Shown: positions 10,938 through 40,906, numbered from the stretch's first letter. The stretch is 41,233 nucleotides of DNA from a virus (IMGVR_UViG_3300025451_000024:1-41233); one strand, 5' to 3'. Made by a program: numbers and translations. The notes: generated by a model not told the origin, from the sequence alone.

Positions 10938-12407
10938 ATGAAAACTTCCACCGTTCGACGGATCGTATCGAGCATGCTTTCCGCCCTCGAAATACCGTCC
11001 CTCCGGTGGGCGGACGTAACTCAGGAATCGCCGCTTCGTGTGAAGTACGCGTCGGAGCCCGCGCTATCCATCACTCCGACTTTCTTGGGGCCGAGGCCAT
11101 CGGTTGGGTACAAAGTCCTCACGGTACGTTGGGGCACACGCATTGTTGTTCTTGGATCTAACGAGGAAGTGGGTAGTTTGGTGAAGGTAACGAACTGGGC
11201 AAAGGGCGACGGCTCGACAAACGACACGGCCGCCATCCAGTCGGCGATCACAGCCGCAAACGGCAAGAAGACGGTTTACTTCCCACCGGGAACATACATG
11301 GTCAACGGCGCGGTCGGGGTGCAGCTCAATATCGCCAACACCCGGCTTCAGCTGGCTTCTGGCGCGATCATCAAGGTGATCCCGAACAACCTGACGAACT
11401 ACAGCATCCTCAACGTGACCTCCCCTGACTGCACAATCGAGGGCGGCACGGTCGAGGGCGACGTCACCACGCACACGGGCTCCACCGGTGAGTGGGGCCA
11501 CGGCATCAACGTGCATGTGAACGCGCACCGCACGAAGATCCGCGACGTCCTGGTCAAGCGGTGCTGGGGTGACGGGATCTACATCGGGGGCGACGGCGCT
11601 GTCCAGGACGTCATGCTGTCCCGCGTCACGTGCGACGCGAACCGCCGGAACGGCTGTTCCGTGATCGGGGGTACTCGGTTCGTTGCCAACGACTGCCGGT
11701 TCATCAACACGGGCACGCTCGGCTTCACCGCCCCTGGAGCCGGTATCGACCTGGAGCCGAATAGCTCCGGGTACAACATCCTGGAGTTCCAGGTCCAGGG
11801 CTGCATTGCGAACAACAACACCGGCCCCGGAATCAGCATCGTGCGGGCCACGGGCATGACGGTGCGCGGCAAAGTGAACGACTGCACCATGACAGCCAAC
11901 CTGACCTACGGGCTCCTGATCACGGGCGGGGCGGGCTCTATCGCCGCGAGCGTGAACGGGTGCACGATGTCCTACAACACGCTCGGGGGTTCCTACCTCG
12001 GTGCCCCTGGTGGGAAGCTCCAGAGCTGCCATCTGTACTCGAACGCCCGGAACGGTGTCTGGGCCGTTGCCGCAGTTGAGATGACCGGGTGTGTGCTGGG
12101 CTTCAACTCGTGGTCTGGGGTCCTGCTCGACACGGGCTCGGACAACTCTACTATCGTCGGGAGCGTCATCGGAACCTCGGGCGGCGCGGCCGCGACCACG
12201 TACCACGAGCTGGACATCAAGAGCACAGGGCTGAGGATGGCGGGCAGTGAGCTACGGCCGTCGGCGTCGGGCAACCGGGCGATCAACGCGATCAACGTCC
12301 AGGCGACCGCGACGGGCGCCGTGTTCAACGGGGTCGGCGCGAGCGCGGGCACCGTAGGCAAGATCGCCGCGCAGGCGGACACGGTGCAGTCCCCGGATAT
12401 TACCTGA
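10938..12407 (+). CDS. Tail spike / receptor-binding protein with pectate-lyase-like right-handed beta-helix
   Basis: AKGDGSTNDTAAIQSAI...VYFPPGTY entry motif followed by GDGIY/NRRNG/GIDLEP beta-helix repeats. Confidence 0.85.
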   Translation: MKTSTVRRIVSSMLSALEIPSLRWADVTQESPLRVKYASEPALSITPTFLGPRPSVGYKVLTVRWGTRIVVLGSNEEVGSLVKVTNWAKGDGSTNDTAAIQSAITAANGKKTVYFPPGTYMVNGAVGVQLNIANTRLQLASGAIIKVIPNNLTNYSILNVTSPDCTIEGGTVEGDVTTHTGSTGEWGHGINVHVNAHRTKIRDVLVKRCWGDGIYIGGDGAVQDVMLSRVTCDANRRNGCSVIGGTRFVANDCRFINTGTLGFTAPGAGIDLEPNSSGYNILEFQVQGCIANNNTGPGISIVRATGMTVRGKVNDCTMTANLTYGLLITGGAGSIAASVNGCTMSYNTLGGSYLGAPGGKLQSCHLYSNARNGVWAVAAVEMTGCVLGFNSWSGVLLDTGSDNSTIVGSVIGTSGGAAATTYHELDIKSTGLRMAGSELRPSASGNRAINAINVQATATGAVFNGVGASAGTVGKIAAQADTVQSPDIT

Positions 12408-13243: not shown

Positions 13244-13263
13244 CCCGAGCTATGCTATGGGGC

Positions 13264-14544
13264 ATGCCATCAGCCACAGACCCGCGAGCTCACAGCTACT
13301 GGATTAAGGTCGACTCGGCCGGGCACCAGCTACGCGCTGACGCCGCCGCGTCGTATCTGCGCATGATCGCCGCGGGTATGCCCGCGAACGGCGTTCAGGT
13401 ATTCCGCCGCACGTGGGACGCTCAGGCCGCCCTCCGGAAGCGGTACCTCCGGGGGGTCGGCCCGATCGCCGCGGTACCGTCGTGGGGGGCGCCGCACATC
13501 CAGGGGGTCGCTTGCGACTTCTACACCCCCTCCGGAGCCGCGTTCCTGTGGGCCATGGGCGGCATGAAGGGGAACCCCGCACTCGCCCCCCGCTCGACTG
13601 ACGATTCCGGCGCTCGGGCTCGGGCGTACGGCTGGTACCGAACCGTGCCGTCCGAGCGCTGGCACCTCCAGTATGACCCCAAGAAGGACACCAAGGCGGC
13701 CGCCGACCTGGCGAGGCGGCTGAAGGTGCTCGGGTACACCGGGCTGAAGTCGTTCCAGCGCGCGAACGGTCTGGCGGCCGACGGGGTGGCAGGCAAAGCG
13801 ACGTGGTTCAAGCTGCTGACCGATCCCAAGCCCGCCACCCCGGTACCCGCCCCGGTGCCGGTGTCGCCCGACCGTGACTTCCGGTTCGTCCAGGTCAACT
13901 GGGAGGCCGACCGGTTCGGCGACGACGACAACGAGACTACCTCGGTGCAGGCCGACTGGGCGGCCAAGGAACTGAAGTTCTCGCTCAGCACCTTTCAGGA
14001 GCTGCCCGAGCGAGCCCGTAAACCGTTCTACGCTCACTACGGTGGGGAGACCAAGGCATACGTGCTGAACTACCTCGGCGTGATGGCCCGGGCCTCGCAG
14101 TGGACGTTTCAGAAGCGCGCAGTGGTCCTGTTCGACGACAAGGGCATCCACGGTGCGGTTCGGGCGACGCTTCTCGAGCCGAAGACCGGCCACGTGATCG
14201 ACGTGATCAGCGTGCACGTGCGCCCGCTCGCCTCGGCCAAGAACACCGCGGCCAAGCTGGGCGACGTGCGCAAGGCCCTCGGCCTGGTGCGCAAGGGCGT
14301 CCCCACCATCTTTGCGGGCGACCTGAACACCGCGGCCGCGCGAGCGGTAGTGCTCGGTGCCGGGCTCGGGTTCAAGATGGTCACGCCCGACGAGGACACC
14401 GTGGTCAAGTCGGGCGTGCAGAAGCTCGATATGGTCGCCGCCACCCCGGAGTTCATCACCCGCAAAGTGACCAAGGTTCGTAACCCCCACTCGGACCACT
14501 ATCTGTGGCTCTGGCAAGGCACCCTCCCCAAGAATCTCAACTGA
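13264..14544 (+). CDS. Endolysin: M15-like peptidase + peptidoglycan-binding domain + EEP domain
   Basis: R...Q, PHIQGVACD and ERWH motifs; FQRANGLAADGVAGKATW PG-binding motif; N..QE..H..GDLN..D..SDH EEP motifs; start 13264 inferred from a leaderless promoter. Confidence 0.85.
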   Translation: MPSATDPRAHSYWIKVDSAGHQLRADAAASYLRMIAAGMPANGVQVFRRTWDAQAALRKRYLRGVGPIAAVPSWGAPHIQGVACDFYTPSGAAFLWAMGGMKGNPALAPRSTDDSGARARAYGWYRTVPSERWHLQYDPKKDTKAAADLARRLKVLGYTGLKSFQRANGLAADGVAGKATWFKLLTDPKPATPVPAPVPVSPDRDFRFVQVNWEADRFGDDDNETTSVQADWAAKELKFSLSTFQELPERARKPFYAHYGGETKAYVLNYLGVMARASQWTFQKRAVVLFDDKGIHGAVRATLLEPKTGHVIDVISVHVRPLASAKNTAAKLGDVRKALGLVRKGVPTIFAGDLNTAAARAVVLGAGLGFKMVTPDEDTVVKSGVQKLDMVAATPEFITRKVTKVRNPHSDHYLWLWQGTLPKNLN

Positions 14545-15402: not shown

Positions 15403-16358
15403 GCCGCCACCTCCTGCAGCATGAGGGCCATGGCCCGATCCTTGGTCGAGGGATCGAAGATCGAGCGCTCGGCGCGGGCCAAGCTCACGTCATCGTTACG
15501 CACCGGGGCGTAGTGCTCGGCCCACTCGGTGAGAGCGTTGAACCCGGCCCACACCGTTTCCCGGATGCCGCTATTGGTGTTCGACACCGAGAACAGGTCG
15601 AGGATGTCGGCGATCTTGTCGTCGGCCTTGGTGTGCGCTGCCTTGCCCGCGTCGTCGGCCGCGCCAAACTCGGCCGCCAGGATTTCTTCGAACCGGGCTT
15701 GCGTCAGCGTCGTGTCGGCCATTTTCTCGGCGATCTGGTTGAACTCGTCCAGGTAGATGAAGGTCTTGTCGAGCAGCCCGAGCACCTCCTCGCGCAGCCG
15801 GGCCACGGCGTGCCGGGTGTGCCGAACCTTGATGATGCAGGAGTTGTCGCCGAGCGCGACGTTGAGCATGTTCATGCACGCGAACCGCATCGGGGTGACC
15901 ATCAGGATGTTGGCCGCGCCGTCGTGGCTGTTGATACCGGCCACGTAGTTGTCAATCAGGTCGACCCCGCCGACCCGGTAGTGACCGGGCAGCTTCATCG
16001 TGATAAAGGTGCGGCGGCCGCCCTTAGCGATACCGGCCGTCTCGAAGGTGGCCCCGGCCTCGGTGGCGAACAGATCCATGATGGCGATCTGGTCCTCGTT
16101 CTGGATCGTGGTGTGCGCCCGGCCCACGTCGCCGAGGTAGCCGAGGCCGCCCTCGGGGCGATCGAACAGCACCGCGCGGCGGTCGGGCATCTCGACGCGA
16201 TCGCCGGTGATGGGGTCGACCGCGTACGCCGGGGCCTTGCGAATGTTCCAACCGGCGAGGCCCCCGGCCTCGAGGGCGTCGGCCGCGCTTGTCGTCGACA
16301 GGAGCGGCGTGCCGAGCGTGTTGAAGGCGTCGAGCCGGGTGATGGTGGAGCTGGTCAT
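15399..16358 (-). CDS. DUF932/DUF945 family protein
   Basis: GLAGW, IQNE, FETAG...GGRR.F, NSHDG, R..C.N.L, RHT, T.W..FNA.TEW..H motifs. Confidence 0.85.
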   Translation of the reverse strand: MTSSTITRLDAFNTLGTPLLSTTSAADALEAGGLAGWNIRKAPAYAVDPITGDRVEMPDRRAVLFDRPEGGLGYLGDVGRAHTTIQNEDQIAIMDLFATEAGATFETAGIAKGGRRTFITMKLPGHYRVGGVDLIDNYVAGINSHDGAANILMVTPMRFACMNMLNVALGDNSCIIKVRHTRHAVARLREEVLGLLDKTFIYLDEFNQIAEKMADTTLTQARFEEILAAEFGAADDAGKAAHTKADDKIADILDLFSVSNTNSGIRETVWAGFNALTEWAEHYAPVRNDDVSLARAERSIFDPSTKDRAMALMLQEVAA

Positions 16359-16425
16359 GGTGGCAACCTTTCGGGTAGGTGTTGTTGCTAAGGGCAACTA
16401 TACACGGGTGTCTGGACAAACGCAA
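16359..16425 (-). promoter_or_regulatory. Repeat copy 1: sigma-A-type promoter + palindrome + RBS
   Basis: TTGCGT-N17-TATAGT, GTTGC-N5-GCAAC, CTACCCGAAAGG; identical over 67 bp to 16647-16713. Confidence 0.9.
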
Positions 16426-16429
16426 CACC

Positions 16430-16449
16430 CCCGGCCGAACTCGGCCGGG
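16430..16449 (-). terminator. Hairpin terminator abutting promoter copy 1
   Basis: CCCGGCCG/CGGCCGGG stem followed by a T-rich run on the - strand. Confidence 0.6.
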
Positions 16450-16646: not shown

Positions 16647-16713
16647 GGTGGCAACCTTTCGGGTAGGTGTTGTTGCTAAGGGCAACTATACACGGGTGTC
16701 TGGACAAACGCAA
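16647..16713 (-). promoter_or_regulatory. Repeat copy 2: promoter + palindrome + RBS
   Basis: Identical to copy 1. Confidence 0.9.
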
Positions 16714-16714
16714 A

Positions 16715-16738
16715 CCCCCGGTCGAACTCGGCCGGGGG
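16715..16738 (-). terminator. Hairpin terminator abutting promoter copy 2
   Basis: CCCCCGG(T/C)CG stem, near-copy of 16430-16449, followed by TTTGCGTTT on - strand. Confidence 0.6.
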
Positions 16739-17628: not shown

Positions 17629-17726
17629 CGGCGCGCCAAGAACACGAGAAGGAGTCCCAGCATGCCAAGCGCGAGCACCAGCAGCACGGCCGCGGCCACC
17701 GCGCTGACCCGTAGCACGCGGCGCAT
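17625..17726 (-). CDS. 33-aa membrane peptide (not in ORF track)
   Basis: MRRVLRVSAVAAAVLLVLALGMLGLLLVFLARR; overlaps neighbours by TGATG and ATGA. Confidence 0.65.
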   Translation of the reverse strand: MRRVLRVSAVAAAVLLVLALGMLGLLLVFLARR

Positions 17727-18040
17727 CAGACGTGCCTCGCGGTCCCGTTGTGGGCCGCCCACGTGCGCCGCACGTTGCGGTTCATCTTGGCCTCGACGGC
17801 GTCCACCAGATCGTTCCAGTCGTACCCGAACGCCCGGACGAGCATCGTGACGACGATCACCACGTCGGCGGCCTCGGCGAGCACCTTCTCGGCCTGGATG
17901 GCTCCGCCGGTTGCCCGTACCTCGTCGACCAACTCGTCCAGCTCCTCATGGAGCTTCTCGAGTTGGGCCTCAGCGTCGAGCCGGTCGGGGTTGATTGCGT
18001 CCAGCTTGGCGGCCAGGGCGTCGAATAGGTCGTTCATCAT
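17726..18040 (-). CDS. MazG-like nucleotide pyrophosphohydrolase
   Basis: KLHEELDEL...EAADV...KMNRN.RRTW (EExxE...ExxD). Confidence 0.85.
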   Translation of the reverse strand: MMNDLFDALAAKLDAINPDRLDAEAQLEKLHEELDELVDEVRATGGAIQAEKVLAEAADVVIVVTMLVRAFGYDWNDLVDAVEAKMNRNVRRTWAAHNGTARHV

Positions 18041-18273: not shown

Positions 18274-18968
18274 CGGAGCTCACCCCCTGCCAGGGTGTGC
18301 GACCGGCCATCGGTGCGGCCCTCAGCGTAGCCGCTGCGCGGGGTTGTGGTGCGGCGGGTCGACCGGACCGTGTGCTCCCCGTGAATGGTGTTCTTGATCT
18401 CGACCTCGCGTGAAACCAGAACCAGCGCGCCGGGGCTTGACTGCTCGACGGCCTGCGATCGCTCGGCGATCTGGTCGGCGATGCCACGGCAGAACCCGGC
18501 CAGGTACCCGCGGTCCCACGAGAACTTGTCGCTCGATTCCCAGCTGGACCAGTCGGTTGATTTGCGCTGGCGCAGTAGCCCCGCGTACGCACCCCGCCAG
18601 ATCATGGGGACGACGCGCCCGAGGTAGTCGAGCTCCGTCTTGGGACCGTAGATCCAGAAACCATGCTCGCGGGCGTCCAGCAGCATATCGACCCGGCCGC
18701 GCATGGCCCGAACGACGGTCCAGGTCCCGACCTTGCCCAGATGGTTCCAGAAGCCCTTCGGCGCCGCGGCGGTCGAGTCGTAGTCGATATAGATTTTCTC
18801 GATCGGCTCGGCCTTCTTCCCGGTGTCGGTCGCGGCAAGCTCGGCACGGTCGATCGCGTGCCTCAGCATCAGCTCATCGGCCTTGGCGAAATACGCGGCC
18901 GCCTCGGCGTCGGTACTGGCGCCCTCGGCCTTGGCGAGCAGGGCCGAGATACGGGTGTGCATGGACAT
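18270..18968 (-). CDS. DUF2786-domain protein
   Basis: N-terminal RISALLAKAEGAST.AEA.A...KA.ELM.RHAID; follows repeat copy 4. Confidence 0.8.
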   Translation of the reverse strand: MSMHTRISALLAKAEGASTDAEAAAYFAKADELMLRHAIDRAELAATDTGKKAEPIEKIYIDYDSTAAAPKGFWNHLGKVGTWTVVRAMRGRVDMLLDAREHGFWIYGPKTELDYLGRVVPMIWRGAYAGLLRQRKSTDWSSWESSDKFSWDRGYLAGFCRGIADQIAERSQAVEQSSPGALVLVSREVEIKNTIHGEHTVRSTRRTTTPRSGYAEGRTDGRSHTLAGGELR

Positions 18969-18976
18969 GCGGTGCT

Positions 18977-19028
18977 CCTTCGGGTAGTTGCTAGGGGCAA
19001 CACTACACGGTCAGGGCTTGGTCGACAA
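18977..19028 (-). promoter_or_regulatory. Repeat copy 4: promoter + palindrome + RBS
   Basis: TTGTCG-N17-TAGTGT, GTTGCCCCTAGCAAC, CTACCCGAAGGAG. Confidence 0.8.
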
Positions 19029-19157
19029 GTGCCACTTCCCACACGGACAGCGGTACGGCCGGAACGGGGTCCCGAAGATCTTGGACTGCCCGATCGCCTG
19101 CCTGATCGCCTGTCGGTTCGACCGGTACGCCTTCTTGCCCGGGGTCGGGCAGCGCAC
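19011..19157 (-). CDS. 48-aa Zn-finger protein (not in ORF track)
   Basis: MRCPTPGKKAY...YRCPCGKWHLSTKP, a common small phage Zn-finger pattern; GTG start. Confidence 0.7.
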   Translation of the reverse strand: MRCPTPGKKAYRSNRQAIRQAIGQSKIFGTPFRPYRCPCGKWHLSTKP

Positions 19158-19160
19158 GAC

Positions 19161-20129
19161 TCACACCGCCCACGGCGCCGAACCGGTGGTCACCCGGCCG
19201 TCGCGAGCCAACCGGCGCCAGTCGAGCGAATGCCATTGCGGCCGGTCGATCAGGTCATACTTGGTCTTCACGTACGGGCCGAGGGGGTCGGCCATCAAGT
19301 GATCGTGCTCGGCCTGCCGCAGTCGCGGCGCCGACTCGGGTGTCCGAATGACCGAGTCCGTCTCGCAGTCGAGCGAGTTGCCGATGATGCTCGGCACCTT
19401 GATTACCGACCCGCCCGCGTTCAGGATCTGGACGACCGCCCCGATATCGTCGCCGTGGTCGTTCCAGCGGGCCAGGTCGAGCCCGCCAGTCGCCTCCAGG
19501 AACCGCCGCACGTGCCAGGCTTGCGCGAGTCCCGGGTTGCCCCCGAGGTTGACCTGATAGCGGGCCTCGCTCGCGGCCGGGGTGCGGTTCGCGTTCTGGT
19601 TCTGGTGGCTCGAGATCATGGCCGAGGGCACCCGCTCGAATGCCTCAAGCGAGGCGACCACGAACAGCATGAACACCCCCAGGAAGAACTCCTCCCTGCG
19701 GCCCTCGACCCGACCGGCGAATGCTCGGCTAGCCCGGCCGGGCTCGGCGCCCCACAGGACACTGAGAAGCGTGAGATCGTCATCTAGGACGATGGCGTGG
19801 TCGTGCCCCAGCACGTCGGCCGTGTCGAGCGACCATTGCCGGGCTCGGCCGACCCCGAGGTTCCGGGGTCCGAAGCTCTCCGGGATGGGCAGCAGCACCC
19901 GGCGCCCATGGTGCCTCTGGTACTCGGCCATCTCGTGCTCGGCGACTACCAGCACCCCCGGCATCTCGTTCAGCACCGGCAGCGTCTTCAGCGTCCGTAC
20001 GCGGCCCGCCCGAGCGTGGCTTATGACGTACACCGGGGGCAGCAGGTCGAGCCGCTGGGCGAGGCTGAACACCAAGTCGAACTTGGCGTCTTGGCTGTCC
20101 TCGTGAAGGTCGAGCGACGGGAGCATCAT
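19161..20129 (-). CDS. GT-A fold glycosyltransferase, TAGT/GREB1-like (putative DNA base glycosyltransferase)
   Basis: VYVISHAR, LVV...E...Y, GVGRARQW.LD, AIVLDDD, later GDD; ATGA-coupled to the thymidylate-synthase-like gene. Confidence 0.75.
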   Translation of the reverse strand: MMLPSLDLHEDSQDAKFDLVFSLAQRLDLLPPVYVISHARAGRVRTLKTLPVLNEMPGVLVVAEHEMAEYQRHHGRRVLLPIPESFGPRNLGVGRARQWSLDTADVLGHDHAIVLDDDLTLLSVLWGAEPGRASRAFAGRVEGRREEFFLGVFMLFVVASLEAFERVPSAMISSHQNQNANRTPAASEARYQVNLGGNPGLAQAWHVRRFLEATGGLDLARWNDHGDDIGAVVQILNAGGSVIKVPSIIGNSLDCETDSVIRTPESAPRLRQAEHDHLMADPLGPYVKTKYDLIDRPQWHSLDWRRLARDGRVTTGSAPWAV

Positions 20130-21640
20130 CGGTCCTGGTTCACGTAGTTGCTGGTCGGCTCGGCCCCGCCCCACAAGGCCCGCTTCATCTCGGCGTTACG
20201 CTTCTGGGTCGACTCCCACTCGTCGAGCGTAAGGTTCCAGGCCGCCCAGAGCAGCCGGGACACCAGCACGCGACGGATCTGGATATCGGGGGTGGCCAAG
20301 ATCTCCTCAAACAGAACGCGGGCCTGCCCGATCGTGTACGCCTGGTACTCGGTCTTCTCGAGCAGCGACAGCGCGCTCCTGACGACCTCGTCCTCGGTGC
20401 GCCGGTCGGTGCCGTCTTGGCGCATCCATCGCTGGTACTTGATCAGGTAGATCGTCAGGTCCATCAGGGTGTCGAGCGCGGTCTCGTCCTCGTCGCTCGC
20501 GCCGAGCCGGTCGACCTTGCGGGCGACGTTCGCCTGGATGGACACAAACTCGCCGCGCTTCTTCCAGGAGTCGCCGTAAGCCTTGTCCTTGCGCTGGTGT
20601 AGGTCGGCCATACACCGGGCGATCTCGGTGCGCAGCTGGGGCGCCGGGGGCAACGGTCGGCCTGGGCTGTTGCGAGCCCCCCACGGCAGGGCGGTGTCTT
20701 CAAGCTCGGCGAGGTAGGTTTCCCGGCCCGACCACCAATAGGCCAGGACCATGAGCCACGAGCGCAGCATGGGGTCCTTAACGCTGCCCTCGATCACGGC
20801 CGTGTGGTCGTGGTCAGGTGTCGTGCGCAGAGTGTTCTCGATCTCGAAGAACTTGATGAGTTCTCCGTCGAGCTGCCCGATGTTGTCGAGATCGAAGCGG
20901 GGCGGGGTAACGCCGATGTTGGCGGTCGGGCTGGACGCGATCGCCTCGGCCTTCTTGTAATGCCGTTCGTATAGGTGCAGCGACGTGATCGAATACGTGA
21001 TCGCCCCCATCTCGAATCCGGTTAGCCGGGCGACTACCTCGAGAAGGACAGACCACTCGAACTGATTGACGCCCGACCACCCCCAGATCAAGTCATTGCT
21101 CCTGGTCACGACGTGCAAGTGCAGCGACTCGCCTCGGGCGATGAAGTGGAGCAGATCGTTGCACGGGATGTCCTTGCCTGGTGCCGTGTCAACCGCCGGA
21201 TCGTACAGCGAGATGACGGCCCGCCTAGTTTCCGGGTCGGACTTCAGCAGGCGGACCACGTGCGCCAGCTGGTCGACACCGCTCCTTCCCAGATGTTGTA
21301 TGCCGCGGTCGACCTCGCCCCAGCGCCGTAGCCGAGGGCCGTAGCCCCCGCGCCACACCTTGCCGTCGTCGCTGAACTCGGCGGCCCGGGGCAGGTAGTT
21401 GCTCAGCCACTCGATGTCATTCCGACCGGCCAGAATCCAGGCCGACTCGGCGATCTGTGCAGGCAGCGAGGCTTTGCGCTTGGCGGCTGTGATCACCCGC
21501 TCGAGAGGATACTTGACGGTGATTCGGTTCATCAGTTGTTCTCGAGTCGTGCCGTTACGACTCGGTACCTCATCGCTCGCGAGCAGGTACCGGGCCATAC
21601 CCCGCAGAGCATCCGTCGGGGTCGTGTACGTTTCCCTCAT
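20126..21640 (-). CDS. Thymidylate synthase-like protein (probable dUMP hydroxymethylase) fused to an Nmad1/DUF1599-like domain
   Basis: YGPR, DQL, TRRAV, DIPCN, RSND..WG...N, SLHLYE; C-terminal RKDKAYGDSW...RKVDRL...DT..DL..Y. Confidence 0.85.
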   Translation of the reverse strand: MRETYTTPTDALRGMARYLLASDEVPSRNGTTREQLMNRITVKYPLERVITAAKRKASLPAQIAESAWILAGRNDIEWLSNYLPRAAEFSDDGKVWRGGYGPRLRRWGEVDRGIQHLGRSGVDQLAHVVRLLKSDPETRRAVISLYDPAVDTAPGKDIPCNDLLHFIARGESLHLHVVTRSNDLIWGWSGVNQFEWSVLLEVVARLTGFEMGAITYSITSLHLYERHYKKAEAIASSPTANIGVTPPRFDLDNIGQLDGELIKFFEIENTLRTTPDHDHTAVIEGSVKDPMLRSWLMVLAYWWSGRETYLAELEDTALPWGARNSPGRPLPPAPQLRTEIARCMADLHQRKDKAYGDSWKKRGEFVSIQANVARKVDRLGASDEDETALDTLMDLTIYLIKYQRWMRQDGTDRRTEDEVVRSALSLLEKTEYQAYTIGQARVLFEEILATPDIQIRRVLVSRLLWAAWNLTLDEWESTQKRNAEMKRALWGGAEPTSNYVNQDR

Positions 21641-22527
21641 TTCGTTCCTTTCGGTTCGGGTGTTACGTGCCAATGTACGGGCAGCATCAAGGGCGGGGGC
21701 GGCCCGTAGCTGGACACGTACGCGGCCGGGTGCTCGCCCCCCTTGCGCTGGTAGCGGTCATACTTGAAGAACTCGCAGAACGTGTTCTGCACGTCCATCA
21801 GCGATGGCGGCCGGTCGCCGAGCAGCACCGAGCGCTCGGACGCCCAGAATTCCCGGGCGTGGCGTATGCCCGCGACGTAGTCCCCGGTCCAGCCCCAAGC
21901 CCGGATGCCCTTGCGGCAGCCCGGCCCCGGCATGATGAAGTCGTTCTCGTCGTCCGAGCCGTAGGGCGAATAGCCCCAATCGGTGAGGATTTGCATGGAC
22001 AGGAAGTCGCCGACCCCGTACAGCTTGCGCAGCATCTCGAACCGATCTTGCGGCCCCGAGGCGGCCAGGTAGTCGCGAGCCACCCGGCGCCGGGCGACCC
22101 GAATCAGGTCCATCACGTGGTCGATCTTGTCGCCCCGGTGCCCCGGCTGGGGGATGATGAGGTAAGCGCCTGAGAAGACAGGCTGGCCCGTCGAGCGTAG
22201 GTCCTTGAGCAGACGCCCGACGGTTTCCAGGTCGCGCATGCCCGGCCACCGGCCGAGCTTGTCGCGCATCCAGAGCCAGGTCTCGGGCCGGTTGGTGTAC
22301 CGGTACATGAAACACCGGAAGAAGATGTCCTTCGGGCTCCCCCCGTCGTACAGCATCCGGACGAGTAGCTGACTGCCACGGTCAAGCACCCGGTACACGT
22401 TCGTGAACTTCCGGCCCGCGATGATGGGGTCGGTCGACCATGGCCCGAGCTCGCCTGCCTGCCTACGCTGCCAGGCCGCGTGCCGCTCCTCGACAAAGTC
22501 GAAGTACCGCATGTCCAAGTCGTACAC
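21637..22527 (-). CDS. Alpha-glutamyl/putrescinyl-thymine pyrophosphorylase clade 1 (aGPT-Pplase1)-like DNA modification enzyme
   Basis: ER...R..G...PWS.DPI....FTNVYR..DR; HhH-like LYGVGDFLSMQILTD; GPG...G; QN.FCEF.KY. Confidence 0.8.
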   Translation of the reverse strand: MYDLDMRYFDFVEERHAAWQRRQAGELGPWSTDPIIAGRKFTNVYRVLDRGSQLLVRMLYDGGSPKDIFFRCFMYRYTNRPETWLWMRDKLGRWPGMRDLETVGRLLKDLRSTGQPVFSGAYLIIPQPGHRGDKIDHVMDLIRVARRRVARDYLAASGPQDRFEMLRKLYGVGDFLSMQILTDWGYSPYGSDDENDFIMPGPGCRKGIRAWGWTGDYVAGIRHAREFWASERSVLLGDRPPSLMDVQNTFCEFFKYDRYQRKGGEHPAAYVSSYGPPPPLMLPVHWHVTPEPKGTK

Positions 22528-22528
22528 G

Positions 22529-24391
22529 TCATTCCTTCCGGTAGCGTCGGGTGTGGAATCCCTCCACCCGAATAGGCAAGTCCGGCGCCCAGCTGGGCGA
22601 CCGGCCCATCACCTCGGCGATCTCGTCGAACCTACCGTCCGACTCGACTACAGCCTCATCATGCACGTGCAGCACCACCCGATGCCCGCCATCGTGCAGA
22701 CGGACGAGCGCGTCGGCGAGCACGTCGCGGGCGACAGCTTGCGTGATGTTCTCGGCGAGGCGACCGCCATAGGTGTCGCTCGGCGCCCCGGTTCGGGGGT
22801 CGATGAACCTGATCACCCGCCGAGGCCCGTACGGACCGGCAACGATGGCGTGGTGCGCCTTGCGGTACACCAGCGCGCGGCCGCTCGGGAGCCTGAGAAG
22901 ACGATCCTTGCCGTCCTTCTCGACTTGCACCCGGCCCGACCCGATCGGCCGGTCGGCCGCCAAGAACCCGTCGTGCAGATCGCCCCAGAGCGAACAGATG
23001 GACGGGTTGGCCTTGCGCCACTGGTTGACCAGCATGTGAAGCTTATGGTCGCTGCCCATCGACCCGCCCCCGAGGGCCTTCAGGCTTCCGATTCCCCCGC
23101 TGTACCCGAGCGCCAGCACCGCGATCTTGCCCTCGGCCCGGCTGAGGCCGCCCATGCGCTCGGCGGTTTCGACGTACAGATCGCGGTGCGCCCTGAACGC
23201 ATCCAGAACCCACTGCTCGCCCGCGAGCCAAGCGACGACGATGGCCTCAATGCTCGCGTAGTCGAATACGTCGAACGGGCCTTCAAACAACGATCGCACC
23301 AGCGACTTGAGCACCGTCTCGCTCATGTCGACACCGGTTTTCAGCTTGGCGATCTGGGTGTCGATCTCGTCCTCGGTCATCTTTATGGTGCCCCGCTGGG
23401 GCATGTTATGGACCTGGAAGCCCTTGCCCGACCACCGGCCGGTATGCGCGCCATAGAAGCGCAGCTGGCCCCGTAGCCGGTTATCCTCGCTGATGCCCAC
23501 CAAGGCCGCTGAATACTTCTTGGCGGCCACCAGAGCCAGGTCTTGGCGGAGCCGTAGCACGTCGCCGACCGCGGTTCCGGCGTGCCGTTCGAGCGCCTTC
23601 TCGACCGTCTCTTTGCGGAGGTTCGGCAGCGGTGCGCCGTTCGCGTGCAGCCAAGTCATCATCTGTTGGATGCTGCTCGGGTTGGTTATGCCCGAGGCCG
23701 CCCAGACCTGGATCTCGCCCTCCATCCGGTTGGCCTCGCTCGCCCGTACACCCTGGATGGCCATCTTGTGGTCAACCGGTAGGCCCCGGTCGTTGATATG
23801 CTGGTCGACCTCCCAGACGCGCTGCTCGGCGTCGGACAGCGGGGCCATCTTGTTTGAGGCGTCGCGCATGGTCACGACATCCTGGCGGCAGTACTCGACG
23901 AACTGATTCCACTTCTCAGGGTGGTCCTCGGGCAACCGGCGTTTGCCGTTACGGTCAGGGACGCAGAACCAGCGAACCAGGGCCGAGCCCGCGGTGTCTT
24001 TCAGCTCGCCACCGATCGCCCGCCCGAGCCGGTCGAGCGATGCCGGGTAGCCGTTCGCCGAGGCTTGCGCCATCGTGCAGCGCCACAACTCGGGCGGCAT
24101 GAAGAAGGGCCATTCGGCCTCGCCGGACCAGTCGTGCAGATACGCGAACCGGCTGAAACAGACGCGCTCGAACATGGCATTGTGCGCAACCCGCTTCTGC
24201 ACGACGGCCGGGTCCCACAAGCCTGGTATGGCGTCGATCTCTTCGGCCCCGATCGCCACCTGAACCGGCCCGTCGTCGATCGCCCAAGCTGCCATTAAGA
24301 TCATGAAGTCGGGGTCCTCTACGTAGGCGTAGACGCCGCTGTCGATAGGGGTGGCCGAGTACGTTTCGATGTCAATCCAGAGCTCGTTCAT
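22529..24391 (-). CDS. DNA polymerase, family A, with 3'-5' exonuclease
   Basis: DIET, AHNA.FE, HTGRWSG, DYASIE, GK.A.LALGY.GG, ENITQAVARD, HVHDE. Confidence 0.95.
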   Translation of the reverse strand: MNELWIDIETYSATPIDSGVYAYVEDPDFMILMAAWAIDDGPVQVAIGAEEIDAIPGLWDPAVVQKRVAHNAMFERVCFSRFAYLHDWSGEAEWPFFMPPELWRCTMAQASANGYPASLDRLGRAIGGELKDTAGSALVRWFCVPDRNGKRRLPEDHPEKWNQFVEYCRQDVVTMRDASNKMAPLSDAEQRVWEVDQHINDRGLPVDHKMAIQGVRASEANRMEGEIQVWAASGITNPSSIQQMMTWLHANGAPLPNLRKETVEKALERHAGTAVGDVLRLRQDLALVAAKKYSAALVGISEDNRLRGQLRFYGAHTGRWSGKGFQVHNMPQRGTIKMTEDEIDTQIAKLKTGVDMSETVLKSLVRSLFEGPFDVFDYASIEAIVVAWLAGEQWVLDAFRAHRDLYVETAERMGGLSRAEGKIAVLALGYSGGIGSLKALGGGSMGSDHKLHMLVNQWRKANPSICSLWGDLHDGFLAADRPIGSGRVQVEKDGKDRLLRLPSGRALVYRKAHHAIVAGPYGPRRVIRFIDPRTGAPSDTYGGRLAENITQAVARDVLADALVRLHDGGHRVVLHVHDEAVVESDGRFDEIAEVMGRSPSWAPDLPIRVEGFHTRRYRKE

Positions 24392-24455
24392 GGTTCCTTC
24401 CGTGGGGTAGGCCGAAGAGGCGGGGGCCTCGCTGCTGAAGCCCCCGCCCGGTAGA

Positions 24456-25074: not shown

Positions 25075-25536
25075 TCAGGCCGGGGGGAGTTCTTGGTGGG
25101 TCAGCCAGTCGGCGACCGGCTTGACAGGCATGCGCAGCACGCCAGCGACAGTGACCTCATTGCGAGCGCCGGTCGAGAATTCCCACCCGGGGAGGATGGC
25201 GACGCCATCGCACTCCAGCAGGCCCTTCAGATCGTCCCTCAGTAGGTCGACGTAGTGCCGGGTCATATGGCTGTCGACTCGCTCGGCCGGGTCCCACACT
25301 CGGAACCCGGCGTTGCGCAGTTGCCGCGCGGCACCGTTGAACGCGGGATAGTTGCACTCGGGGTAACCGGTCATGGGACCGGCGACGTACAGCATCCGGA
25401 TGGGCCGTACGCCAGTGGCGTACGGGGCGTGGAAACCCGACTCGACGCACTCGAAGATGAACCCCTCGCCGCCGACGAACTTCTCGACGGCGCCCCCACA
25501 CCAGCAGGGCTTGAGGAGTGTTTCGGATTGCTTCAT
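25075..25536 (-). CDS. DUF4406 / nucleoside 2-deoxyribosyltransferase-like protein
   Basis: YVAGPMTG..CNYPAF...DPAE...LLECD....LPGWE.S.GAR.E. Confidence 0.8.
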   Translation of the reverse strand: MKQSETLLKPCWCGGAVEKFVGGEGFIFECVESGFHAPYATGVRPIRMLYVAGPMTGYPECNYPAFNGAARQLRNAGFRVWDPAERVDSHMTRHYVDLLRDDLKGLLECDGVAILPGWEFSTGARNEVTVAGVLRMPVKPVADWLTHQELPPA

Positions 25537-35400: not shown

Positions 35401-35493
35401 ATGCAACCTACCTACCTTGCCCTGGTCGAGCGGCTATCGCTGGTCACGGCGCTCGCTGCTCTGGCCCTCATGCTGGCCCTGGTGTTCCTATGA
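35401..35493 (+). CDS. 30-aa membrane peptide
   Basis: MQPTYLALVERLSLVTALAALALMLALVFL; ATGA overlap with the GT25 gene; TACGAT-N6-ATG upstream. Confidence 0.55.
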   Translation: MQPTYLALVERLSLVTALAALALMLALVFL

Positions 35494-36179
35494 TCCCCAC
35501 CTACGTCATCAACCTCGATCGCCACCCCGATCGCATGCGCCAGATGGAAGAGATCTGGGGCTCCGACATCATTCGTGTCCCCGCTGTCGACGGCTCGGCC
35601 CGCGACCCGGAAGCCATCTGGGGGTTCGCTGTCGACGCCGCGAGCACCCCCGGCCAAGACGTCGAGCGCGTCACGCTCAAGTACTGGCAGCGCACCTATG
35701 GGTGCTACTGGTCGCACATCAAGGCGCTGAACGCGGCGCTCGACGGCGGCCACGACCGGTTCATGATCCTGGAAGACGACGCCCGACCCCGGGGCAACAT
35801 GGACGACCCGAGCCGCCCTCAGGACGGCGTGCTCATCTGGGGCGGGGCGCTCAAGGGCGGCAGCTACACGACGCACCACCGACGGGCCGCGGACCCCAAC
35901 CCGCCGACCGGCTGGCACCGCATCCAGGGCTTGAAGGATGCCCGGCTCCGGTACCAGTCGCACGCCACCGAGTATCCGCGACTGCTCGCGCTCGACTGGC
36001 AGATGGTGATTCTCGAGAACCCTGAGAGCTATGACATCTCGTGGTGGCAGGCCATGGTCGCGGTCCCAACCTACGTGCCTGGGGTCGAGCAGGTCTATCA
36101 GGAGCTCGACTTGGGCAGCGCCAGGCGCCGCGCAGACAAGCAGAAGCTGATCGCCGAGGGCGTGCCCTTCCGCTGGTAG
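35490..36179 (+). CDS. Glycosyltransferase family 25
   Basis: YVINLDR..DR, AVDG, GCY.SH, ILEDDA signature motifs. Confidence 0.85.
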   Translation: MIPTYVINLDRHPDRMRQMEEIWGSDIIRVPAVDGSARDPEAIWGFAVDAASTPGQDVERVTLKYWQRTYGCYWSHIKALNAALDGGHDRFMILEDDARPRGNMDDPSRPQDGVLIWGGALKGGSYTTHHRRAADPNPPTGWHRIQGLKDARLRYQSHATEYPRLLALDWQMVILENPESYDISWWQAMVAVPTYVPGVEQVYQELDLGSARRRADKQKLIAEGVPFRW

Positions 36180-40174: not shown

Positions 40175-40906
40175 ATGTCAGCTCAGCCATTCTTCATCCC
40201 GGGGGCTCCCGCCGAGCTCCTCAAGATCATCAACGATCGCCGCGCGACCATACCGCGCGGGATGACCATGACCGCGGGACCCGCCGAGGGTGCCCCGGCC
40301 GAGCAGCAGGGCAAGCCCGCCGAGGGCAAGCCCGCCGAGCAGCAGGGCAAGCCCGCCGAGCAGCAGGGCGGCAAGCCCGCCGACCCGCCCAAGGACGAAA
40401 CCCCCGAGCAGAAGATCGCCCGGCTGGAAGCGACCCTGGCGAGCGTGCGCGACGACAGCGCCCGGAAGCGCCTCAACGCCAAGGAGCAGGCGGCCGCCGA
40501 CCGCGAGTCCGAGGTCACGAACCGCATCCTCCAGGCCCTCGGACTCGGCAAGGATGGCGAGAAGGTCGTCAACGCCGACGAGCTTCTGGCCAAGCTAACC
40601 GCCGAGCAGGCCAAGAACAAGTCCCTCCAGATGCGCGAGGCCGTGCGCGACGCGGTCAGTGACGCCACCGAGGCGGGCCGACTGCTCAAGAACACTGACT
40701 TCCTGTCGGCGATCGAGGGCCTGGAGCCCGGCGATTCGACTGGCATCAAGAAGGCCGTCACCGATACGCTGACGGCGAATCCGTGGCTCAAGTCCGCGCC
40801 GGGTGCGCAGGGCAAGAGCGGCACCGATATGTCCGGCGGGACCGGGGATGGTGCAAAGGCCAAGGCCGCGACCTTGGAGCAAGCGATCCAGGCTCGCTAC
40901 GCCTGA
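40175..40906 (+). CDS. Head scaffolding protein
   Basis: Directly before the capsid gene; GKPAEQQ repeats, coiled coil, NPWLK, LEQAIQARY C-terminus. Confidence 0.85.
   Translation: MSAQPFFIPGAPAELLKIINDRRATIPRGMTMTAGPAEGAPAEQQGKPAEGKPAEQQGKPAEQQGGKPADPPKDETPEQKIARLEATLASVRDDSARKRLNAKEQAAADRESEVTNRILQALGLGKDGEKVVNADELLAKLTAEQAKNKSLQMREAVRDAVSDATEAGRLLKNTDFLSAIEGLEPGDSTGIKKAVTDTLTANPWLKSAPGAQGKSGTDMSGGTGDGAKAKAATLEQAIQARYA

Follow-up and report, generated by a model that had tools for sequence, protein, structure and literature searches.

Introduction

Hypermodification of thymine (T) in phage DNA has been described for M6, ViI, PaMx11, PhiW-14, SP10 and phage 15599 (PMC5889632, PMC8989533, PMC13458397). 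The present study concerns a putative thymidine hypermodification operon at positions 19161 to 24391 of IMGVR_UViG_3300025451_000024:1-41233, a viral DNA of 41,233 nucleotides that is called the window throughout. With the systems above the operon shares a hydroxymethylase of the type acting on deoxyuridine monophosphate (dUMP) and a clade-1 aGPT-Pplase gene next to the DNA polymerase gene, and relatives of the window hold the full set of transferase, pyridoxal phosphate (PLP) enzyme and kinase in the same slot. In the window, by contrast, no 5-hydroxymethyluracil (5hmU) DNA kinase, clade-2 transferase or PLP or radical S-adenosylmethionine tailoring gene was found, and a glycosyltransferase (GT) of the TAGT family stands instead. 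We propose, with a probability of roughly 60% judged from sequence, that 5hmU is made as a nucleotide, replaces thymine and receives a sugar directly from the TAGT enzyme, giving a base-J-like base without a kinase.

Base J of trypanosomes, made by JBP1/2 and the base J glucosyltransferase (JGT), resembles the predicted product in having a sugar on the hydroxymethyl group of 5hmU, and the GT-A enzyme of the window carries a JGT-like motif. Here, however, 5hmU would come from a pre-replicative synthase and not from a dioxygenase, and the substitution is predicted to be widespread rather than a regulatory mark. The T-even glucosyl-5-hydroxymethylcytosine (5hmC) system and the TET-associated phage GT-A enzymes (bioRxiv 2023.12.21.572611; PHROG 842) are alike in direct transfer from a nucleoside diphosphate (NDP) sugar by the same GT family, whereas the synthase signature in the window is that for uracil, not cytosine, and a clade-1 aGPT-Pplase is present. 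The sugar-bearing thymidines of SP-15, YerA41 and Carin-5 (PMC12686479) are also glycosylated thymine derivatives in phage DNA, but with a pentyl-type linker, a phosphate and large polymerases fused to uracil-DNA glycosylase; in the window the link is predicted directly on the hydroxymethyl group, and the polymerase has 620 aa. The same kit occurs in the cultured phages LuckyBarnes (gp38-41; PMC6588365) and RSL1 (ORF230-237), which have a dUMP-type synthase, PF18723 (clade 1) and TAGT genes and no match to the kinase profiles PF18748 and PF18751 or to the clade-2 profile PF18724. They differ from the window in gene order and in having two (LuckyBarnes) or three (RSL1) TAGT genes, and RSL1 has sugar-nucleotide (nucleotidyltransferase) and sulfotransferase genes besides. 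The window locus is the minimal form, with synthase, clade 1 and one GT.

Every part of the locus comes from a known family. Contigs with ThyS-associated GT-A genes have already been counted in bulk (bioRxiv 2023.12.21.572611), and the 2019 announcement of LuckyBarnes already remarked on the pairing, taking it for a cytosine system and calling the synthase a dCMP hydroxymethylase from the genome alone (PMC6588365). The literature searched, which covered subscription papers little, contained no report of a phage DNA with 5hmU glycosylated directly; Iyer et al. 2013 may predict such a base. Its formation by synthase and TAGT does not appear in the available parts of PMC12686479, PMC13229309, PMC9331655, PMC11955845, PMC7302621 and PMC7824862.

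Results

The four packed genes described by the first-pass annotation were confirmed, all on the minus strand, together with the junctions it gave (a 1-nt gap and two ATGA overlaps). At one ATGA junction an alternative in-frame ATG is possible one codon later. In the order of transcription the genes are:

22529 to 24391, minus strand: family A DNA polymerase (Pol A), 620 aa (PF00476, 38.6 bits; PHROG 17, E 2e-104)
21637 to 22527, minus strand: aGPT-Pplase clade 1 / HMUDK_hel protein, 296 aa (PF18723, 183.8 bits, cut-off 25)
20126 to 21640, minus strand: thymidylate-synthase homologue with a C-terminal helical domain, 504 aa (PF00303, 90 bits)
19161 to 20129, minus strand: TAGT-family GT-A glycosyltransferase, 322 aa (PF20691, 53.6 bits; PHROG 842, E 5e-15)

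The synthase part comprises about 250 aa, PF00303 matching the N-terminal half of the protein, and was aligned with E. coli ThyA, T4 gp42 and the enzymes of M6, SP10, SPO1L4 and CBA120. Cys160 is the catalytic residue, and Asp157, Asp183 and Asn192 occupy the positions of ThyA L143, D169 and N177, respectively. The Asn after RSND that had been noticed earlier is present in the motif RSNDLIWGWSGVN at residues 180-192. At the L143/N177 pair the window enzyme has Asp/Asn, as do those of M6, SP10, SPO1L4 and CBA120; ThyA has Leu/Asn and T4 gp42 Asp/Asp. Residues diagnostic for dUMP hydroxymethylases, dCMP hydroxymethylases and 5-hydroxycytosine (5hoC) synthases are given in PMC13326640, according to which dCMP hydroxymethylases have Asp at N177 and 5hoC synthases additionally Asn at D169. 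The window synthase has the catalytic Cys, acidic L143 and Asn N177 of a dUMP hydroxymethylase. The Asp at L143 separates it from a plain dTMP synthase, a distinction that the Asn alone had not provided. In tblastn searches with the synthase, the best matches after LuckyBarnes and Montesquieu included many M6/YuA-like, Ackermannviridae and Herelleviridae enzymes. From its residue signature, the synthase very probably converts dUMP to 5-hydroxymethyl-dUMP (5hmdUMP). Assignment as a dCMP hydroxymethylase or 5hoC synthase was rejected on Asn192 and Asp183, the latter case because D169 is retained.

Fusion of the synthase to Nmad1 had also been suggested. The C-terminal extension is real, and the label is plausible by ESM-Atlas features, with 0.92 (201 shared) for a cluster that bears the name Nmad1 and 0.89 for a PF07659 cluster, although the Nmad1 profile PF07659 matched none of 29 synthase tails at E<=1 and the window's tail had no match in Pfam. 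The helical domain is likely to be Nmad1. In one sequencing run the synthase gene lacks 36 nt, in frame, at positions 21270-21307; this stretch, a variable loop, is apparently also missing from a related locus (L098; 492 against 504 aa). At another locus (L137:3158-4198), one in-frame stop breaks the synthase reading frame, which may reflect a sequencing error, a pseudogene or recoding of the stop.

The GT matches PF20691 above the cut-off of 27.5 bits over profile positions 2-105 of 205; no GREB1 family was matched at E<=0.1. Its AlphaFold model (pLDDT 92) has GT-A folds as neighbours in the PDB, and its structural neighbours in BFVD are named TAGT or beta-glucosyl-HMC-alpha-glucosyltransferase. 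Of the motif R...DDD...ED, described for JGT and for GT-A enzymes of phages that act on DNA (bioRxiv 2023.12.21.572611), the GT has R40, DDD116-118 and, as the last element, the Asp-Asp pair 227-228, where 14 of the other 15 enzymes aligned have Glu-Asp. Family match, fold and motif thus all agree with a TAGT, JGT-like enzyme. Besides itself, the GT has 26 homologues at E<=0.001 (43-72% identical). Its start overlaps the stop codon of the synthase gene, and it directly follows the synthase in all four close-relative loci fetched besides copies of the window (L019, L099, L100, L101). It is predicted to be a DNA 5hmU glycosyltransferase.

The absence of a 5hmU DNA kinase and of a dNMP kinase, stated by the first-pass annotation, held in all searches of the window. 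PF18748 and PF18751 had no match in six-frame translation at E<=10, nor had PF18724, and custom kinase and transferase hidden Markov models (HMMs) gave a best E of 0.8. No kinase family was found in Pfam scans of 25, 7 and 150 open reading frames (ORFs), which covered ORFs under 90 aa only partly. The strict Walker-A pattern, which overlooks variant P-loops such as that of the SNF2 helicase, occurred in 4 of 480 stop-to-stop frames, namely the tape measure, a VapE helicase, the terminase and ORF 40175-40906, whose PHROG matches are all of unknown function. As positive controls, M6 matched PF18748 and 22 of 49 records matched PF18751. The P-loop 5hmU DNA kinase of the M6/ViI-type 5-phosphomethyldeoxyuridine pathway was therefore not seen in the genome by any of these searches, and no JBP/TET dioxygenase, the source of 5hmU for base J, was found in Pfam and PHROG scans of the window.

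These absences bear on a genome that had been called essentially complete, and this was borne out. The window (41.2 kb, ~66% GC) is a circularly permuted siphovirus-type genome cut within the major capsid gene, with a CheckV completeness of 100% and the record class linear. The two pieces of the capsid gene, one at either end, cover profile positions 4-99 and 109-296 of 301 and nearly fill the profile, so that little sequence is missing (about 10 residues of the capsid protein). A single 8.8-kb contig of an independent run covers 18900-24426 without a gap and shows 33 differences.

Recurrence of the trio without a kinase in other phages was also confirmed. Loci (numbered L) were fetched with the clade-1 protein (13, then the best 80 of 171), the synthase and the GT. 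In the window's phage family, polymerase, clade 1 and synthase form a fixed core in that order and the next slot varies. Whole-record profile searches covered 49 records drawn from 84 candidate loci. TAGT was found in 14 (12 above cut-off), PF18751 in 22, PF18748 in 2 and PF18724 in 17; a kinase or transferase was present in 26, neither cassette in 9, and TAGT together with a kinase or transferase in none. The 14 TAGT records comprised six with a dUMP-type synthase and clade 1, six with a dCMP-type synthase, one whose synthase is partial and which lacks clade 1, and one with no synthase in the flank seen. Further TAGT records were free of PF18724 (0/10; 3/3 controls positive), and PF18748 had no match in five TAGT records, the positive control, M6, having matched in a separate search.

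A wider survey of flanks was carried out with home-made HMMs; 9 same-contig or near-identical loci were removed and other near-duplicates retained. The 86 clade-1 loci had TAGT in 25 cases, transferase or kinase in 37, both in none and neither in 24, and the corresponding numbers for the 69 loci with a dUMP-type synthase were 19, 35, 0 and 15. On a quickly built PF18723 tree, six switches between the two cassettes are needed. Synthases with different cassettes can be close: identity is 58% between the synthase of L101, which goes with TAGT, and that of L004, which goes with a transferase, a PLP enzyme and a kinase. At L101 the order is polymerase, synthase and GT (45% identical to that of the window), with no clade-1 gene at the locus (16.9 of 48.9 kb read), and PF18723 was likewise not found in the 18-kb record behind L019.

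Several of these records carry other gene sets. In the slot after the synthase, L015 (13194-15534) has a Stealth-like protein and two further glycosyltransferases, and L008 (7361-8886) only small unrecognised genes, in a record 100% complete and without TAGT, kinase or clade 2. In Montesquieu (L002:16505-19621), genes published as auxiliary metabolic genes, an ABC transporter and an ACC deaminase (PMC9331655), match the PF18751 P-loop kinase and a PLP enzyme of hypermodification cassettes. RSL1 (L140:1-8051) has three TAGT genes, nucleotidyltransferases, a sulfotransferase and an annotated APS kinase next to clade 1 and the dUMP-type synthase, a set that may place a sulfated sugar on 5hmU. In Microbacterium phages of the cluster-EA type, the synthase paired with clade 1 is T4-like and of the dCMP type. 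Loci of this kind are L003:1357-5179 (BouleyBill), L044, L045, L048, L049, L056, L057 and L059, five of them with TAGT; Microbacterium phage BouleyBill has a PF18751 kinase instead of TAGT and no clade-2 gene, a hint that this cultured phage uses a phospho-5hmC route not described before.

The clade-1 protein matches PF18723 over profile positions 6-275 of 281, as the first-pass annotation had called it, and is 23% identical to M6 gp55 over 307 columns (E 4e-14), which matches the same profile. The role then assigned to it, transfer of amines or amino acids, does not follow from this homology: every one of the four transferases that PMC8989533 lists in its Table 1 belongs to clade 2, and the M6 transfer reaction did not require gp55 (PMC8989533). 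A clade-1 gene without a kinase is hence no paradox. The activated intermediate of the known route, moreover, is a monophosphate (PMC8989533) and not pyrophosphorylated 5hmU as had been stated. Clade naming here follows PMC8989533 and our scans (gp55, PF18723; gp51 region, PF18724); Table 3 of PMC5889632 has it the other way, with gp51 as PPlase1 and gp55 as PPlase2.

For a match of the clade-1 family to M6 gp51, hhalign gave a probability of just 0.3%. The AlphaFold model of the clade-1 protein (pLDDT 94) gave VIA-align Z scores of 10.2 with a queuine salvage enzyme, 9.9 with the clade-2 PUGT 8z2m (root-mean-square deviation 4.4, 224 aligned) and 8.6 with OGG. Foldseek returned no PDB match at E<=0.001, PUGT being on top at E 0.05, so that the fold call rests on VIA-align, in which a Z of about 10 is only moderate for a helical protein. 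As modelled, the fold is helix-hairpin-helix glycosylase-like. Cys251, Glu252 and Lys255 are invariant in 76/76 distinct clade-1 rows whichever cassette lies downstream, and six reference phages share this Cys-Glu-x-x-Lys motif. The Cys is placed opposite the catalytic Cys of clade 2 (PMC11472151) by a local alignment that is weak. The clade-1 protein probably acts as an enzyme on a flipped pyrimidine, attacking it at C6.

The distribution of clade 1 suggests a reaction. PF18723 was present in 6/6 T-hypermodifying phages (M6, SP10, CBA120, PhiW-14, ViI, PaMx11) and absent from 3/3 SPO1-like phages (SPO1, SP8, SPO1L4) and from T4. Virions of SP10, PhiW-14, M6 and ViI contain T and the hypermodified base and no 5hmU (PMC8989533), SPO1 and SP8 are described as full-5hmU phages (PMC8989533, PMC5889632), and the route from 5hmU to T is called unknown in PMC5889632. 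Clade 1 is therefore a candidate for this step. The single role that we consider most likely for it, though somewhat less probable than not, is conversion of unglycosylated 5hmU to T on DNA through a methylene intermediate with the Cys bound at C6.

Two neighbouring genes may act on the nucleotide pool, and a second glycosyltransferase lies further away:

17726 to 18037, minus strand: small MazG-like nucleotide pyrophosphohydrolase (PF03819, E 4e-4, below cut-off; PHROG 2245, E 4e-6)
25075 to 25536, minus strand: DUF4406 / nucleoside 2-deoxyribosyltransferase-like protein (PF14359, 72 bits; PHROG 355)
35490 to 36179, plus strand: second, unrelated glycosyltransferase GT25 (PF01755, 26.9 bits), between terminase and portal

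Genes of the DUF4406 type also lie upstream of the polymerase in L006, L007 and L010. The MazG-like protein is a possible partner of the cassette in depletion of dTTP/dUTP, and the DUF4406-like protein a possible nucleotide-pool partner. The placement of the GT25 gene among packaging genes suggests, in line with actinobacteriophage work, glycosylation of a virion protein; addition of a second sugar to DNA would be another possible function.

Discussion

The synthase residues, the fold and motif of the GT and the exchange of cassettes in one slot are best explained by a modified uracil bearing a base-J-like sugar, one of the options raised by the first-pass annotation. The synthase would turn dUMP into 5hmdUMP, which host kinases would phosphorylate, while the Nmad1-like tail, the MazG-like protein or both may deplete dTTP/dUTP. 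Host dNMP kinases have been proposed for 5hmdUMP in phage 15599, which also employs a dTTPase/dUTPase (PMC13458397). Pol A is predicted to take up 5hmdUTP and would build 5hmU into DNA in place of thymine. The GT would then move a sugar from a host NDP-sugar onto the hydroxyl of 5hmU in DNA, a step that we regard as fairly likely from fold, motifs and gene context. An NDP-sugar donor brings its own leaving group, and the base would need no activation and no kinase. A kinase would be required just where the base has to be activated for clade-2 transfer, which would explain the joint loss of kinase and clade 2 in the presence of TAGT. Clade 1 would accompany the synthase as a core partner regardless of the decoration cassette that comes next. 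The cassette likely serves to block host nucleases, and we infer that it protects from restriction or CRISPR.

A number of results weigh against this reading or parts of it. No sugar-nucleotide gene and no dCMP deaminase were found in Pfam and PHROG scans of the window. The GT match covers only half of the TAGT profile, tblastn against 50,697 phage records gave no match at E<=0.01, and PDB sequence search no solved relative; hence the acceptor is not fixed. Exclusivity of the cassettes was not significant in a test on independent pairs (9 pairs, median p 0.5), the informative pairs being too few for significance (on average, 2.1 agreed with the prediction, 0 opposed it and 6.9 were uninformative). 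Fisher's p values of 2e-8 and 1e-6 take no account of relatedness; some near-duplicates and truncated records are still included, and the loci surveyed also supplied the HMM seeds. As to clade 1, no cofactor-binding domain is evident in the model, the three SPO1-like negatives are one genus, and clade 1 lies beside dCMP-type synthases in 8/86 loci. SP10, with a kinase/clade-1 fusion, makes glutamyl-T and has no PF18724 gene, and its clade-1 domain may thus be the glutamate transferase. The full combination, a genome-wide base J or sugar analogue made by synthase and TAGT, exchangeable with the kinase/amino-acid cassette, and with clade 1 reducing leftover 5hmU to T without a kinase, is doubtful as a whole.

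The alternative that survives best is a two-step route, in which the GT glycosylates 5hmU in the kinase's stead and the clade-1 Cys expels or reworks the sugar and installs another group, giving a final base other than a plain glycoside. Clade 1 does hold a Cys at the catalytic position of clade 2 in the same fold, mutual exclusion of kinase and TAGT fits alternative activators, and SP10 makes its glutamyl-T with clade 1 as the only aGPT-Pplase detected. The GT as an activator for the aGPT-Pplase had been put forward by the first-pass annotation; SP10 counts for this idea, but it is weakened by L101, where synthase and TAGT stand without a neighbouring clade 1, as they do in the L019 record. 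Furthermore, clade 2 goes along with the kinase wherever TAGT is present, and M6 gp55 is dispensable for transfer (PMC8989533). We consider this route unlikely. A sugar also leaves less readily than a phosphate.

Slightly less likely still is plain 5hmU DNA, or 5hmU converted to T, with the GT acting on virion proteins, the host surface or a free nucleotide. The PDB neighbours of the GT are general GT-A enzymes of proteins and glycans, 24/86 clade-1 loci have no recognised decoration gene in their flanks, and the window has its GT25 gene among the packaging genes; yet the TAGT gene overlaps the synthase stop, sits in the slot of a known decoration cassette, follows the synthase directly in 4/4 close-relative loci and belongs to a family that includes DNA glycosyltransferases. 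It is improbable that the synthase makes dTMP or hydroxymethyl-dCMP, the DNA then having ordinary T or T4-like glucosyl-5hmC. The published dCMP hydroxymethylase call for LuckyBarnes (PMC6588365) and the clade-1 and TAGT genes found with dCMP-type synthases at 5/86 loci would agree with it, but the enzymes of the window and of LuckyBarnes both show the Asp/Asn pair (L143/N177) of known dUMP hydroxymethylases, and M6/YuA-like, Ackermannviridae and Herelleviridae enzymes are numerous among the best tblastn matches. A conventional kinase too divergent to detect, or lying in the few bases missing from the assembly, is very improbable: although the kinases of this family match PF18751 and not PF18748, so that one profile can miss kinases, and the record class is linear, PF18748, PF18751, PF18724 and the custom HMMs all failed to match, the ends leave room for about 10 capsid residues only, and a kinase is equally absent from complete genomes such as LuckyBarnes.

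If direct glycosylation of 5hmU by the TAGT enzyme is correct, the locus would be a viral counterpart of base J, its GT a small 5hmU-specific glycosyltransferase of use in labelling, and its product a new substrate for modification-dependent restriction. As the kit is present in LuckyBarnes, a phage cultured on a harmless host, the proposal is testable by one nucleoside analysis, and T in the DNA of a kinase-less phage bearing clade 1 would implicate clade 1 in the 5hmU-to-T step.

Other features of the genome

By DNA over the operon, the nearest cultured relatives of the window are Brevibacterium phage LuckyBarnes and Glutamicibacter phage Montesquieu, whose replication gene order resembles that of the window. 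Near-identical DNA occurs in freshwater and wastewater runs (20/24 of the matches listed, from 12 studies, one possibly the source), and no RNA run was among the matches listed. Several minus-strand genes are preceded by a repeated element of some 90-120 bp (16336-16449 and 16647-16736), possibly a phage promoter repeat. The gene in the endolysin position (13252-14544, plus strand) encodes a peptidoglycan-binding domain and a weak exonuclease-endonuclease-phosphatase domain (PF03372, E 0.001, below cut-off), and a tail protein with a pectate-lyase-like beta-helix (10938-12407, plus strand) is likely a depolymerase.

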